Part shown: positions 13,556 through 64,000 of the stretch, piece after piece | Position numbering within the stretch: position 1 is the stretch's first letter | How the letters are laid out: the number at the start of each line of letters is the position of its first letter | Source of the DNA: Octopus vulgaris | Taxonomy: Eukaryota | Assembly: GCA_951406725.2 (NCBI GenBank) | Contig: OX597816.1 | Span: 50,282,001 to 50,346,000, forward strand | Direction of reading: 5' to 3' | DNA length: 64,000 nt | Translations under genes and position numbers: made by a program | Notes under the pieces: model-generated | Database searches by the model: none | Seen by the model: only the letters and a program-made list of their open reading frames with translations | What the model was told of the DNA's origin: nothing

Positions 13556-14239
13556 ATAACAATAATAAATCTCTGAGCGAGGTATAAACAGTAACTGCTC
13601 TATAATATAAGCGGGATCAGCCATCTGAATGTGGCTAGGGACAGGGCGGGGTGGTGGTGGTGTTACTGATGCATTTAGCCCCAGGCGACTATCGACGTCA
13701 CCAGAAGAGCCGACACCCGGTGAGGCTGATCTCCCTTTGCAGGCTAGCAAAGACACCGTGATGGTGTCGGCTCTTCTGGTGACGTCGATAGTCGCCTGGG
13801 GCTAAATGCATCAGTAACACCCCCACCACCCCGCCCTGTCCCTAGCAACATTCAGATGGCTGATCCCGCTTATATTATAGAGCAGTTACTGTTTATACCT
13901 CGCTCAGAGATTTATTATTGTTATCGAACGGATTTTCTACGCCAGTGACTGTGGTTACTGTGAAAATCTCTATATATCTGGCCTGTACAGGAAGTCCCTC
14001 GGCGAAGAATGGTGCTTGTCATACGCTGACAAGAGGCAAATACCTCGAAACCAGTCCGTGTGTAGCATCCGTATCTTCGGTGAGGCTGATCTCCCTTTGC
14101 AGGCTAGCAAGGACACCGTGATGGTGTCGGCTCTTCTGGTGACGTCGATAGTCGCCTGGAGCTAAATGCATCAGTAACACCCCCACCACCCCGCCCTGTC
14201 CCTAGCCACATTCAGATGGCTGATCCCGCTTATATTATA
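13556..14239 (+). mobile_element. Non-autonomous PLE-type / retrozyme-like insertion: inverted arm plus 1.45 x 360-bp unit
   Basis: Inverted arms 13556-13717 and 13763-13924; direct repeat with exact 360-bp period (13718 vs 14078); flanked by (TA)n on both sides; contains an HHR motif. Confidence 0.85.
14020..14062 (+). ncRNA. Minimal type-I hammerhead ribozyme motif (G8 mutated to A)
   Basis: CATACG-CTGACAA-GAGG caaata CCTC-GAAA-CCA-GTC-CGTGTG: stem I 6 bp, stem II 4 bp, GUC cleavage triplet. Confidence 0.8.
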
Positions 14240-16489
14240 AATATATATATATATATATATATATATATATATATATATATATATATATATATATATATAT
14301 ATACACATATACATATATATATATATATATACACATATACAGTTGTGTTTGTGTATACTTCCTTCGTATTTCACCTTCGTTTTCTAATATGTGTATCACT
14401 TCCGCATGTTAGCGTGTCGGTTAATTTTCATTTGAATATTGTTTGCTAAAACGTATGTTGTTCTGTTGCATGTAAGCAGAATACAGATGCTTCTTTTGTT
14501 TCTTAAATCTACTTGCAATGATTCTATAATTTTGTGCTATGCTACAGGCGATTTTCCTTATAAAATTTCTGTTAATGTTCTTGCATACTAATTCATCAAC
14601 TACTCTTTAAGTATTTGAATATGGATTCATGCATTTTTTATATTATATGCTGTTTTGAATGAGGATATTATATATTTGTTTTAATGTATATCACTGGTCT
14701 TTACTTTTATTTTAAGTTTTACTACACGTTTCTATCGCTGTGAAAAATTTTATTTTCCTTCTTTCATTCTTATTCTTTCCTATGTATTTCAATAATTTTC
14801 ACCGCTAGTAACGCTGGCCCGCTCTATAATTTTTCATGAGATTCTTTTTATTTTCCTTCTTCGATCATTTATAACTGATTCAGTTGTGTCGATTATTCTA
14901 TAATTTGGTAACTCGCGTTGCCATGATAAACAAAATGAGTGCCAAGATAAACGGGGCGAAACAAACGATATGGTATTCCCACACATGCAAACGAAACAAA
15001 TGTTCGTGCCCGGGAAATCTTTGACTATAAGTCGGGTCGGACAGGGTTCTTCCAAATCTACACAGCAGAAAAAAAAAGCGAGATCTGCAGCTACAAATAT
15101 ACGACGAAAAAGATCTTTCAGTAGGAGGAAATACAAGCAATTACGTCACCACCAGCTTTGCTAGAAAACGAAACGTTGGAAAGAATCTCCTTTATATACA
15201 CGCGTTGTTCATCCTACGAAAATCATAGTGTAGCTATTAAGTCGGAAAGGTAGAAACAATAAGTTTTCAGGGTTACATTCATCGTAGCAAATTTTGTTAT
15301 ATAAAACGTAATCAAGAAAATGAAATGACATCTCCAAACTAACCTTCGAATATGTCGTAGGGTTAATGATCAAAGTTCGTAGAATAATAATTTATTCTCC
15401 TCTCTCAGATACTGTTATGAAGGTGAGCAATACACACACACACACACACACACATATATATATATATATATGTACATTCATACGCTTACACACTCACATA
15501 TAGAATGTGTATATGTGTATCTATATGTGTATTTATATATGTGTGTGTCGTCGCGCATTTATTTATATTTATATTTATATTATATTCATATTTTATATTC
15601 CTATTGCGATAAAATTTGTAGAGGCCATGTAAATTTCAGGTCCTCCTTGACCAGTGAGGTTGAAGATTTTACTGTTGCATCCGAGACATTATAAATCAAA
15701 ATCCATTTGGGAGATATCAAAAATAAATAAATTCCGGAATACCGAGGTTCTGGAGAAGAATATTAAGAGTAAGAATATCAAGTGTAAGAATATTAAGAGG
15801 AAAGATAGAAAGCAGATTGCCTTATTACCGTTGGCAACACTGAATCAGTTCAGCACAGTAGCGGTGTATAAATGAAAACACAGGAATTAACACTTGTATG
15901 TAAGAAGCTCCATCTTGTCTTTAAAAGACATTATAGTTATCACTCACTTTTTTGGGGCTCTGATTGGAACGGCCTATCATTCGGTGCTGATCTCAACTCG
16001 TTAAAGACGCCTTTTCTCCCAAATAGATAGCTGTATATATTGAAGCCGGTGATTTTCACGTCTCTGATGCTTTCTCAATATGCACACAACTATCTATCCA
16101 TCCACCCATCCTTCAAGCTACACACACACACACACACAGATCACACAAATATGTATATATATATATATATACTCACACACATACACACAAATATATCTAT
16201 ACATATATGTATGTATTTTAGCACGCATGCACGTATGTGTGTGTATACATGCATACATACATACATATATATATATATATATATATATATATATATGTGT
16301 GTATGTATGTGTGTGTGTATTTTGGTATGCATGCACGTATGTTTATATATGTAAATATATACATACATATATATGTGTATATATATATATATATATATGC
16401 ACAGATATAGCCTGATAATTATACATTTAGATATATAGATGAATACACACACACACATACACACACACACACGCTCATATCTTTATATA

Positions 16490-61036: not shown

Positions 61037-62286
61037 TTATAGAATAGTCCTTCTGAATGGGATCTGGATGTTATTCCATTCGGACTTTCGGTTGAGAGTA
61101 GGTTTGTATTCTTGTATACAAACAGCTTCTGTGACCTGTCTCAACATTGCATCGGTGGGATGTGTAGATAGGATGTTCAACTTAAGCTCCCTAAGGATCC
61201 CTTGTGGCAGTCTACAGCATGTTGGTAGAAGGTGGAGTTTGGCTTCCTTTCAATGTAGTTGTCCAGGTGTTCTTTGAACCTATCATTGATGCTTCTAGAG
61301 GTCTCACCTATGTATGACTCCGGGTTAGCCGCGCAAGCTCCCTCCTGGCACTTAATCTGGTATACAGTGCCCTTCGTTTTACAATTTACGTGTGGATTTG
61401 TCGAACACACTGCACAATTACTCTGACAGGTGATTCTATCAATTGGATATGATCTGCATAATGCCGATTTGATAGTCCTACCTGTCTTTTCTACAACTTT
61501 AACTTTTAGGCCCGTAGTGCGCAGGACTTTCTTGAATGCCTTACTTAGCTCGTTCATAGGTGTGGCGTCAACGAACATCACTCCGTGAAATCTCCTGTTA
61601 TCGTACCAAGTAACGTTTCTCATCTTCTTGTTGGTGTCCCTCTCTAACCTATTCCAGAACTTGTTGCGGTACAGGGGGCATATACCGTTTTCGTCGTTCC
61701 CTAGAATGCGTTCGAATCTAGCTTTCGCTCCTTTGTACACCCTGACTCTATCGTCTTGTGTGTATCCGGAACGTTGCATTCGGAATATGTAGTGCTGGAT
61801 GTGTTGTTGTCGTTCTTGTGGTTGGCATAGTGGTGATACATTCCTCATTACTCTAACTAAGTCTGCCACTAGGATGTTGAGTTTGGCAGTATCCGACATA
61901 GCTGAGTCACTACGGATTACTAGTGGATTAGCCATCGGTTTCTGATAGTGTGAGTGGAGTATACATGGTTTAATGGTACCATTAACCATAGCGTCTTCCA
62001 TCCATAGCTCAGTATCTAGGACGGGTAATCGTTTACTGGGGTGTCTAGAGGGGTAGTCTATGGTAAGTTTTATACTGCTGTGGATAGAGTCAGCTATGTG
62101 TTGTATAGATGTCATCACCTGTTCTTCACTTGGTAGAGGGCCCATAACTGTGCCTGTATTACATTTCACAACAAGGTTAATGTCGTCGACATAACGAGAG
62201 TACATAGCCAAGTGGATGTTACGGTTTGCTAGGCACTGTTTAAAACGCTTGTCCCACCATACCATGAAGAGGTTAGCAACGTCACC
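61037..62286 (-). pseudogene. Penelope-like RT (C-terminal half), Cys-rich linker and GIY-YIG endonuclease; one frameshift
   Basis: YSRYVDDI, LPVLD, HYQKPM, MQRSGY, CQSNCAVC..C, GTVYQIKC..C..YIGETSR..RFKEH..QH..H. After a frameshift at ~61198 it continues ILRELKLNIL..LRQVTEAVCIQEYKPTLNRKSEW..IL to a stop at 61037. Confidence 0.93.
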
Positions 62287-64000
62287 GACGTTGCTAACGA
62301 TATATATATATATCGGATCCGTTACATATCTACATATACACATTTACGTACAGGACATATACAAGCAACCGACACACACAAACATATATTCATTTGTATA
62401 TGTATAGATTTGTCTATCTATCTACCTATCTATCTCCCTTTCTTTCTACCGATATAAGTGTGTGTGATTGCTTATATAAATATATAAATATGCATGTATA
62501 TATATTTGAATGCATGTATACGGGCATGTATATATATATATGTATGTATGAACGTACGTAATACGTAAATACATGTATGTATATATGAACGTACGTATGT
62601 ATGTATATATAATCATTTCCATAAATTCATATATGTTTGAGACGTACTTATAGAATATTTTGCTCAACCGTGGCCAGCGTCGCGCATGACCAGCTAGTGG
62701 CCTTTTGCTGAACTATTACATGTGTAATTTTAGAGTCAGCCGAGATTTCTTGACCGTCAGTATCACTCTATCTTGCAATGACAAATCTCTTCCCGAGGGA
62801 AGGTTATTGACGAAACTTCATTGACGCATGGATTTAGAACATTTAAAAACTGCGCTGGGAAATGTAAATGATCGAATGGTGACCCATTCCACTTCAGTAT
62901 AATTCTCTCTCTTTATACAAAATTCTAACTGTTTATACAAAAGACTAATGGTTCCTTTCAACAGAACTTTTCCATAAAATTATGTCATTATTTCCAATCA
63001 TTATATTCCATAAATCTACAAAGCAATAACCATTAAACCATTTTCACTCATGTAAGCACACACTTCACATATATGATCCCATATACACAGTATATAATCT
63101 AATTACATTGTTTACATTGATCGTTAACAAATTTGAAAATAATTATAAATTTTATAACTATATTAATAAATTATGATGTCTTAATTTAAAATATTAAATC
63201 ATGGATATACCCACATATCGCTTTACCAGTTCGGAAATGGCTGAAAGAAAGGGGTGTTTTTGGAACAACATCGTGCATTATGCCTCTTTTAATGAGGCAT
63301 ACTTCATATGAAAGTCCTTACGAGGTAAAGAAAAAATTTCGTATTATATCATAACATTGTGTATGTATGAGTATGTGTGTGTATGTGTGTGTGTGTGTGT
63401 GTATGTCTGTGTGCGTGTGTGACCATGCGAATGTCTGTAAACACACAGAAGCACACACAGATATATACATGCACATATGGTTATATAAATCAACATTTGA
63501 ATCATTTCAAATAGGTTTCGAAATATTTCTACAATATTTTGCCGAGGTCGGTCTGTCGACGAGTGTAATCAGCTTAACTGCTGAATCTGAAGTTTCATAT
63601 GGAAACAAAAATTTTGTAAGTTATTCCAAGGTCGTCTGCATTGCCGTAAACAATGTTGGTGATAGCCAACAACTTAGAAATGTGGTTATCGACATCCTAT
63701 ATATGTATATATTTAGGAATGTATGTTTGTATATATGCATGTATGTATGTATGCTCTGTGAAGTCCATGCATGTTTGTATGTATTGTTATGTATGTATAT
63801 ATATATATATATATATATATATATATGTATGATGGAGAAGAATATATGCAAGAAAGTAGTGAAAACAGAAGCATAAACCTCAAAAAAGAAAGACTAAAAT
63901 GAACCGCAACAAATCACCTCAATCAATCCATACGTGTGTTATAAATATCACCTGTAAAATACATTGCTGATGGTAGTGGTGTTTGAATATGTGATATCTG

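Follow-up and report, generated by a model that had tools for sequence, protein, structure and literature searches.

Hammerhead motifs in the window

The window, i.e. the whole stretch of DNA analysed here, comprises 64,000 nt of the Octopus vulgaris genome (contig OX597816.1). Nine sites at which hammerhead motifs had been predicted are all present, with C3 or its equivalent at 14026 (+), 31971 (+), 33688 (−), 44780 (−), 48481 (+), 52081 (+), 56306 (+) and 60043 (−); the site at 57562 (+) has no 5′ core. The half-deleted copy described near 33690 is borne out by 33688 (−), in which a deletion spans stem II through stem III. A profile search of the window added a tenth remnant at 31850 (−), the 3′ half of a family b motif. 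With families denoted by letters, the features are:

13556–14238, + strand: family a element, a ~360-nt retrozyme-like unit with an inverted, 5′-truncated copy upstream, in (TA)n; other copies display tandem 360-nt spacing
14020–14062, + strand: family a hammerhead motif with C3.A8 mismatch (CUGACAA); stem III palindrome broken in the window copy
31764–31852, − strand: partial inverted family b copy, with the 3′ half of the motif and the tail
31853–31912, + strand: tRNA-like head of family b (box A/box B-like, read by eye; recurs upstream of family b motifs), then (AAT)n
31965–32011, + strand: family b minimal hammerhead, canonical CUGAUGA+A; G10.1 lost in the window copy
33617–33975, − strand: family b element with head, (AAT)n and tail; motif with the stem II–stem III deletion
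44750–44784, − strand: family d minimal hammerhead with U4C core (CCGANGA+A); 3′ end of a presumably Neptune-like PLE lineage
48155–48597, + strand: family e, presumably Neptune-like PLE, 5′-truncated 3′ end
48477–48512, + strand: family e minimal hammerhead with A6U core (CUGUNGA+A); predicted cut after 48508
52072–52125, + strand: decayed copy of the old family f; family core canonical CUGARGA
56302–56337, + strand: decayed family e copy, CUGUCGA, with GAUA instead of GAAA
57562–57760, + strand: truncated relative of family a without 5′ core
59918–62290, − strand: family i, young C-terminal GIY-YIG PLE, 5′-truncated copy with (TA)n on its flanks; 97–98% identity to other copies
60001–60050, − strand: family i hammerhead with swapped G3-C8 (GUGAACA+G), 7-bp stem I, 5-bp stem II (a single private mismatch in the window copy) and AAUAUU palindrome; predicted cut after 60008
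61177–62290, − strand: incomplete ORF of family i, encoding RT from the YVDD region onwards, thumb, CX3CX2C linker and GIY-YIG endonuclease; frame disrupted close to the C-terminal end

The sites at 48481 and 56306 belong to one family, and the truncated site at 57562 is related to the family at 14026. The RT/GIY-YIG fragment at 61–62 kb, which had been suggested as a candidate partner, belongs to the same element as the motif at 60043.

Every window copy carries a private lesion compared with its own family, e.g. in stem II at 60033, GAUA for GAAA at 56306, or in the palindrome at 14026, and several copies privately break conserved elements of the hammerhead. Individually, the copies in the window are probably inactive fossils. 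MFE folding of most of them is no better than that of shuffles (z −2.2 to +1.3); an intact family i copy reaches z −3.0. Because the window copies are decayed, a strict descriptor finds just two sites in the window, at one mismatch. Rfam covariance models report no hammerhead at 31780–32100, nor in three family a copies, two of which are canonical. The Rfam scan of the whole window was dominated by microsatellite matches, among the 150 of 411 rows listed, and the repeat search of the window by (TA)n.

Core variants at the level of families

The genome was sampled as 100 evenly spaced 10-kb stretches (1,000,000 nt) and searched with a relaxed descriptor of the minimal type I hammerhead, with core positions 3, 4, 6, 7 and 8 left free; three local dinucleotide-block shuffles of this sample served as control. 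The search yields 33 matches in 1 Mb, versus a mean of 0.33 in the shuffles. Although not demanded, a Watson-Crick 3:8 pair is found in 31 of the 33 (C-G 24, U-A 6, G-C 1), and the occurrence of all three pairs unasked argues for a hammerhead-specific constraint. The exception is the C3.A8 subfamily of family a, which includes the window motif at 14026. Canonical CUGANGA is present in just 6 matches; the expectation that CUGANGA descriptors would miss most intact motifs holds for the other 27 of 33. A density of one motif per 8 kb had been proposed. High density does extend genome-wide, at a value closer to one per 12 kb (81 profile matches in 1 Mb and 9 in the window, partial motifs included), and extrapolation from 81 per Mb gives roughly 2 × 10^5 motifs in the octopus genome, partial ones included.

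For individual families, exact patterns were searched genome-wide, and cores were counted by eye in the first 100 of the matches listed. At this level G12 A13 A14, A15.1-U16.1, H17, G10.1-C11.1 closing stem II, and a stem I of at least 3 bp are present in families a, b, d, e, f and i. The canonical 5′ core C3 U4 G5 A6 N7 G8 A9 is found in b and f, and is altered in i (G3-C8), e (U6), d (C4) and most of a. The tiny palindromic stem III of the original prediction is likewise a property of the families, being ACGU in b, d and e, AAUAUU in i, and ACCGGU in a; family f has a longer palindrome with an odd loop. As judged from sequence, the window motifs are real minimal type I hammerhead-shaped motifs tied to PLEs.

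In family i, the predicted G3-C8 core is family-wide and situated in the 3′ end of a coding RT/GIY-YIG PLE. G3 is present in 100/100 and C8 in 96/100 of the matches listed (5,186 genome-wide); stem II and core are constant, and loop II differs by subfamily. One locus (L031) displays an inverted truncated copy together with pLTR-ORF-pLTR, with GUGAACA at both ends. Family i thus displays the tandem/inverted pLTR arrangement and (TA)n insertion typical of PLEs with a C-terminal endonuclease, in which a tail of 30–40 nt is optional. RT, a CX2-5CxxC-type linker and GIY-YIG were read by motif in the translation, and homologues are annotated as RT; Pfam gave no match for the family i protein. Stem covariation, proposed earlier as a check, was not borne out within family i (two-sided changes in 0 of 15 pairs).

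The A6U core of family e is family-wide as well, in the 3′ end of another coding RT/GIY-YIG PLE. The U6 core has 14,944 genome matches, versus 609 with another base at position 6, where A accounts for 22/100 among the matches listed. Two copies (97% alike) each contain an open RT/GIY-YIG frame of 767 aa, with the U6 motif ~830 nt downstream; the protein matches RVT_1 (E 6e-8) and GIY-YIG (E 0.005, below the curated cut-off). The variable positions of this family are exactly the two that a hammerhead leaves free, which points to a hammerhead-specific constraint: N7 (U44 A25 C20 G11 in the first 100 matches listed) and N17 (A31 U7 C5 G1 in 44 unbiased copies). Contigs of four sequenced organisms display no variant of at least 5% at C3, U4, G5 and U6, and all three alternatives at N7; the GUGAACAG core is present in the loose-end letters of all four sequencing runs. 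Minor bases average 6% in core and stem columns versus 18% in the flanks. Family b displays no such contrast (p 0.78), and in families e and d it may be inflated by profile ascertainment and pyrimidine-rich flanks.

Family d carries C4 in 84/100 of the matches listed (6,501 genome-wide), i.e. a family-wide U4C core, again in the 3′ end of a coding RT/GIY-YIG PLE: at one locus, an endonuclease end is followed by a repeat-rich UTR of 2.9 kb and the C4 motif. The endonuclease is ~60% identical to that of family e. By their motifs, we take families e and d to be Neptune-like PLEs; the proteins of e and i are just 24% alike over 223 aa. Copies of family e end in (TA)n. An inverted partner within 1.5 kb was found for 0 of 32 family e and 2 of 20 family d sample copies, and a tandem partner for 2 and 0, respectively. 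Since partners are rare, most genomic copies have no built-in dimer.

Family b is canonical in 83/100 of the matches listed (3,896), with U6 in 1/100 and C4 in 5/100. Its tRNA-like head lies at most 450 nt upstream of 7 of 24 sample matches; the box A/B-like letters were read by eye, and the head was recognised by neither ARAGORN nor Rfam. In family f, the CAGAGGA at 52081 had been listed among the altered cores, and turned out to be private decay, its relatives being mostly CUGARGA.

Family a is a retrozyme-like family of ~360 nt, in which CUGACAA (14026) marks a young subfamily beside U3-A8 and C3-G8 forms. The 3:8 states in the first 100 of 129 matches listed are U-A 49, C.A 24, C-G 22, U.G 4 and C.U 1. 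The C3.A8 copies form one clade and are 98.8% alike; in a tree of 35 of at least 129 copies, C.A and C-G together form one clade with 100% support within the U3 forms, and the order of the 3:8 changes at its base was not recoverable from these 35 copies. The subfamilies have stem I and the ACCGGU palindrome in common. Family a may preserve intermediates of a compensatory switch from U3-A8 to C3-G8. A second U3-A8 family (1,081 matches) likewise has tandem units of ~360 nt that contain a type I hammerhead; ORFs were seen in the units of neither. Non-coding tandem units of ~170–400 nt, each with a type I hammerhead, are a feature of these two families and not of b, d, e and i. Outside the window, a sister PLE family has A9C fixed (92/100 of the matches listed, 3,887 in total; A9 kept in 6/100), with open frames of up to 1,312 aa.

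The flanks examined contained no coding partner of families a, b and f; of all families, only a and b seem to be non-autonomous. A young Hydra-type PLE family was considered as partner of the window families and displayed no link, with no motif identified in the stretch examined. Endonuclease fragments beside copies of a, b and d (loci L067, L163 and L150) were judged to be neighbours or insertion targets.

Systematically altered cores, as originally claimed, are hence found as family-wide G3-C8, A6U and U4C, and for CUGACAA as a subfamily; the claim fails for CAGAGGA. The motif at 31971 belongs to a canonical family. The notion of PLE-dependent ribozyme elements is correct in tying the hammerheads to PLEs; however, copies of i, e and d are mostly 5′-truncated ends of coding PLEs and not separate elements.

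Possible mode of action and alternatives

Based on this data, we favour on balance the hypothesis that these motifs are hammerhead-shaped 3′ ends of several PLE families, with cores altered family-wide and not by copy damage, which likely still serve transposition as slow self-cutters assisted by dimer formation or protein. RT/GIY-YIG ORFs precede the G3-C8, A6U and U4C motifs. Most copies consist of a short 3′ end situated in (TA)n, frequently accompanied by an inverted partner. Reverse transcription of PLEs would start near the 3′ end and stop early, so that the hammerhead-bearing end would multiply. On a transcript that is tandem or reads through, the palindromic stem III may bring two motifs together, with cleavage at NUH. 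As the 3:8 pair is preserved in G3-C8 and U3-A8, these cores should retain partial activity; U6, C4, C9 and C3.A8 would cut far more slowly, relying on the protein of the element or on low turnover being sufficient. PLE hammerheads cut poorly in vitro. Against this hypothesis counts that uncompensated cores have spread anyway, as in the C3.A8 clade and in the A9C family with its open frames.

The same two cases would be expected if the fold was kept and catalysis dropped, i.e. if in several PLE lineages the motif now served structure or protein binding, as in RT docking or RNP assembly, and if U6, C4, C9 and C3.A8 were tolerated losses of cutting: the C3.A8 clade was amplified, and A9C is fixed in a young family. 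Published work points in this direction as well. In the available text on deep mutagenesis (PMC9901934), the G-C swap is the sole rescue in the CUGA region and other single and double CUGA mutants have low activity, which argues against cutting by U6 and C4; published mutagenesis predicts low cutting activity for U6, C4 and C3.A8. For the PAc hammerhead of Anolis Poseidon, the accessible part of the report (PMC11167929) describes that insertion in vitro needs no hammerhead cutting and is not lowered by hammerhead mutants, and that RNA-seq ends are not seen at the cut site. However, loss of catalysis appears rather unlikely given that N17 of family e avoids G (1/44) and N7 is free, as cutting demands, that 3:8 is Watson-Crick across families, and that G5, G8, G12, A13 and A14 are fixed.

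Weak cores might instead be cut in mixed dimers, where the NUH of one RNA is cut by the 5′ core and stem II of another, and C3.A8 is processed by C3-G8 or U3-A8 relatives. Stem I and ACCGGU common to the subfamilies of a, ACGU common to b, d and e, and the dimer model of hammerhead cutting presented in the consulted text of Cervera and de la Pena 2014 (PMC4209133) are consistent with this, but no abundant canonical partner of matching stem I exists for e, d, i and the A9C family (A6 below ~1% in the family e context), and we consider the idea improbable. Conceivably, A-to-I editing of A8 might also rescue such a core. That the motifs are in general chance folds, or canonical hammerheads decayed copy by copy, is scarcely credible. 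Decay does apply to 52081 and to the private lesions of every window copy, and CpG decay could account for the C3.A8 state and some of the U4/C4 mixture. Yet the descriptor matches exceed the shuffles by far, thousands of exact matches carry the variant base, and canonical family b hardly contains U6 or C4 in its listed matches. The variant-base counts in e, d and i refute chance and decay for G3-C8, A6U and U4C.

Beyond the favoured hypothesis of assisted slow self-cutting, it is possible, if tentative, that octopus PLEs amount to a natural mutagenesis experiment on the hammerhead core at genome scale, in which A6U, U4C, A9C and G3-C8 lineages spread either via protein rescue of near-dead cores, or after cutting was lost and the fold was retained to bind protein. 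One genome contains canonical, compensated (G3-C8, U3-A8) and uncompensated (A6U, U4C, A9C, C3.A8) cores, several of them beside long open ORFs. As such lineages can be compared within one genome, the need for RNA self-cutting in PLE spread becomes directly testable. Censuses based on CUGANGA undercount animal hammerhead motifs.

Relation to known hammerhead systems

Hammerheads in PLEs have been published, as have natural U3-A8 and U4C cores. Natural U4C keeps enough activity in vivo (Perreault 2011, PMC3088659), and the natural variants U3-A8, U4C (viroid) and A6C (phage), with activity retained or low, are called rare in the passages available to us (PMC3088659; Naghdi 2020, PMC7151607). 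A6U, A9C and natural G3-C8 are absent from the accessible text of both and are fixed in octopus families of thousands of copies. We found no published report of natural family-wide G3-C8, A6U or A9C; Lünse, Weinberg and Breaker 2017, Arkhipova 2017 and the supplements of PMC4209133 and PMC3088659 may list them. Likewise, no tRNA-headed PLE elements with hammerheads were found in the literature. On octopus hammerheads, only Craig 2021 (PMC8557442) was found, and the main text of a 2026 octopus repeat paper (PMC13282606) has no occurrence of hammerhead or ribozyme. The available text of Craig 2021 describes Hydra-1_oBim, an octopus PLE of the Hydra clade with a single canonical hammerhead; the variant families are absent from the consulted part of the File S2 table.

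The octopus motifs resemble the PLE hammerheads described in the consulted portion of PMC4209133 in their pLTR position, the tiny palindromic stem III, G10.1-C11.1, an extra base after A9 in most families, and thousands of single truncated copies. Natural U3-A8 is found in both (about 1,300 hits in Schistosoma). In contrast, families with G3-C8, U6, C4 and C9 are unreported in that portion, and variant cores exceed canonical ones in octopus (27 of 33 intact motifs), unlike there.

PAc and the octopus motifs are both pLTR hammerheads of PLEs. According to the accessible text of PMC11167929, the engineered C3G/G8C partly restores cutting of PAc, which cuts only with the protein of the element; in octopus G3-C8 is natural and family-wide. 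Octopus elements have a Neptune/Nematis-type linker, unlike the PAc Poseidon. Family a and the second U3-A8 family resemble metazoan non-LTR retrozymes as described in the available text of PMC7229834 and bioRxiv 10.64898/2026.07.22.740005, in that each tandem unit of ~360 nt contains a type I hammerhead. They differ in U3-A8 or mixed 3:8 states and PLE-style inverted copies.

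Hammerhead motifs in the window and in the genome

The window consists of AT-rich, microsatellite-rich animal DNA from a genome of 2.8 Gb. At least eight minimal type I hammerheads had been proposed in it, and the motif sites do exist:

14026, plus strand: C3 of the family a motif
31971 (plus strand), 33688 (minus strand) and 31850: family b sites, C3 at the first two
44780, minus strand: C3 of the family d motif, U4C core
48481 and 56306, plus strand: C3 of the family e motifs, A6U core
52081, plus strand: C3 of the family f motif, CAGAGGA
57562, plus strand: remnant of a motif
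60043, minus strand: C3-equivalent of the family i motif, variant G3-C8 core
59918-62290, minus strand: family i Penelope-like element (PLE) copy with the 60043 motif at its 3' end

A sample against query bias was composed of 100 evenly spaced 10-kb stretches (1 Mb). Six family profiles, partial motifs counted, yield 81 matches in this sample (e 32, b 24, d 20, i 4, a-like 1, f 0) and 9 in the window. A relaxed descriptor, in which only G5, A9, GAAA, the stems and NUH are fixed, yields 33 matches in the sample versus 0.33 in shuffles, an excess far above chance. Only 6 of the 33 carry a CUGANGA core, and positions 3 and 8 are complementary in 31 (C-G 24, U-A 6, G-C 1); as the descriptor does not ask for this complementarity, it is the strongest sign that the motifs are hammerhead folds. 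Family counts given below are exact genome-wide patterns, with base tallies taken by eye from the first 100 matches listed; controls with reversed patterns gave 0 matches throughout.

Variant cores at the ends of coding elements

With the core left free, family i has 5,186 matches genome-wide, with G3 in 100/100 and C8 in 96/100 of the first listed. Its loop II varies from subfamily to subfamily, and the window motif carries a private base in stem II, its one difference from the nearest relatives. The RT/GIY-YIG partner suspected in the window is the same PLE that carries this motif (59918-62290), with 97-98% identity to copies bearing long RT/GIY-YIG frames. The best protein relative of its RT, 54% identical, is labelled Octopus vulgaris and is encoded in the same genome at 100% identity, which makes this octopus very likely the host. 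At another genomic stretch, L031, an inverted truncated copy accompanies a pLTR-ORF-pLTR unit (pLTR, terminal repeat), with family i motifs at both ends. A young sister PLE of family i outside the window (P0001 family, L321-L350), whose frames stay open for as much as 1,312 aa, has fixed A9C: its pLTR hammerhead reads CUGAUGC+G in 53/53 motifs of these stretches, and among 3,887 genome matches the first 100 listed show A9C in 92 and A9 in 6.

Family e with U6 has 14,944 exact matches genome-wide, and 609 matches carry another base at position 6 (C68, A22, G10 in the first 100 listed), a mix which fits decay from U. The GIY-YIG domain is reached upstream of family e copies, and two copies, 97% alike, each hold a 767-aa open RT/GIY-YIG frame, followed after about 830 nt by the U6 motif. 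Family d, in its commonest subfamily context, shows C4 84, U4 14 and A4 2 (first 100 listed of 6,501); the split in 25 unbiased copies (C11, U13, A1) implies contributions from U4 subfamilies as well as from CpG decay. At one locus, a C4 motif is joined to the endonuclease end via a 2.9-kb UTR. A second U4C motif, CCGACGA, unrelated in sequence to family d and with a longer, odd-loop stem III, occurs at L226:2509 and L228:6249.

The altered cores are thus family-wide for 60043, 48481/56306 and 44780, with thousands of matches; CAGAGGA at 52081 is private decay, because relatives of the old family f (71-79% identical) are mostly canonical. The proposed tie to PLEs stands in that motifs are linked to RT/GIY-YIG PLEs, with the correction that the families with altered cores represent the ends of coding PLEs. 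The original observation is largely right, and it is stronger genome-wide than in the window, where all copies are damaged.

Families a and b and further repeats

Family a (129 genome-wide matches) forms tandem and inverted units of about 360 nt, in which no ORF was seen. Its 3:8 states among the first 100 matches listed are U-A 49, C.A 24, C-G 22, U.G 4 and C.U 1; the C.A copies are a young clade, 98.8% alike and close to the C-G copies. Both Watson-Crick states and both single-step intermediates occur as subfamilies (L379-L398 and window 14026). Outside the window, a second 360-nt tandem family with fixed U3-A8 (L270:8000-9400, L194:51) has 1,081 exact matches, and more U3-A8 families occur at L224, L229, L052, L140, L053 and L193.

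Family b (31853-32065 and 33617-33975) has a tRNA-like head and an (AAT)n tract joined to a minimal hammerhead; its core is canonical in 83 of the first 100 listed of 3,896 matches. An inverted partner lies within 1.5 kb for 20/24 sample matches. Family b may be a PLE-mobilised SINE-like element.

Other repeats were observed as well. A young Hydra-type PLE family (L291-L320; 150 scored matches at >=90% identity) combines frames that are open for as much as 960 aa with an AT-rich 3' UTR of >900 nt; no hammerhead was located for it. The window further holds an abundant, (TA)n-split SINE-like family (1432-1849, 9635-10064, 29604-30080, 33293-33619, 44839-45002, 49293-49667, 52418-52542), two dispersed families (1901-2324, 39578-39865, 51115-51348; and 12483-12673, 55748-55936, 59091-59259), and a 126-aa frame (54313-54693, minus strand) resembling a mariner-type transposase N-terminus by eye (weak HTH_41 match, E 0.011).

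Possible activity and relation to known hammerheads

This analysis establishes where the motifs lie, what they are linked to, how the copies are built and that the variant cores are fixed. We hypothesize that PLE reverse transcription ends early, by which hammerhead-bearing 3' ends would multiply. Compensated cores may retain partial activity; U6, C4, C9 and C3.A8 would cut slowly at best, leaning on protein. That the variant motifs are slow, assisted self-cutters appears to us the probable reading. PLE minimal hammerheads are described as weak cutters that act as dimers (PMC4209133; PMC6765202). For the Anolis PLE hammerhead, protein is described as required for cutting, with partial rescue by C3G/G8C (PMC11167929); pairwise mutagenesis of the CUGA region reports the G-C swap as sole rescue (PMC9901934), natural U3-A8, U4C and A6C are reported with retained or low activity (PMC3088659; PMC7151607), and a G3-C8 variant in G17 context is mentioned as active, data not shown (PMC3884650).

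Retention of the fold without catalysis seems rather unlikely; in its favour, insertion of the Anolis PLE is described as independent of hammerhead cutting (PMC11167929). As to selection on the fold, family e varies at N7 (all four bases) and N17 (A, U, C; G in 1/44), exactly the two positions left free by hammerhead chemistry, and in contigs of four coded organisms the same variation concerns N7 only. Minor bases average 6% in its core and stem columns versus 18% in flanks. Against such selection, family b lacks this contrast, profile searches preferentially pick up copies whose core is intact, and two-sided covariation was not found in family i (12 copies). Cutting in mixed dimers is quite improbable in our estimation. 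Mere decay or chance is scarcely credible, given the descriptor excess (33 versus 0.33).

A canonical hammerhead of an octopus Hydra PLE is already in print (PMC8557442 File S2), and retrozymes are described as PLE derivatives (PMC7229834; bioRxiv 10.64898/2026.07.22.740005). The main text of the octopus repeat paper PMC13282606 does not mention ribozymes. The portions of the literature covered hold no natural, family-wide G3-C8, A6U or A9C, which would be the new element; the large survey of small PLE hammerheads by Lünse 2017, outside this scope, could lessen the novelty. Compared with the PLE minimal hammerheads as described in these sources, the octopus motifs share the structural features and are predicted to act alike. 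But families i, e and d, along with most of family a, depart from the canonical 5' core, and hence, judged by sequence, they are termed hammerhead variants rather than proven ribozymes.
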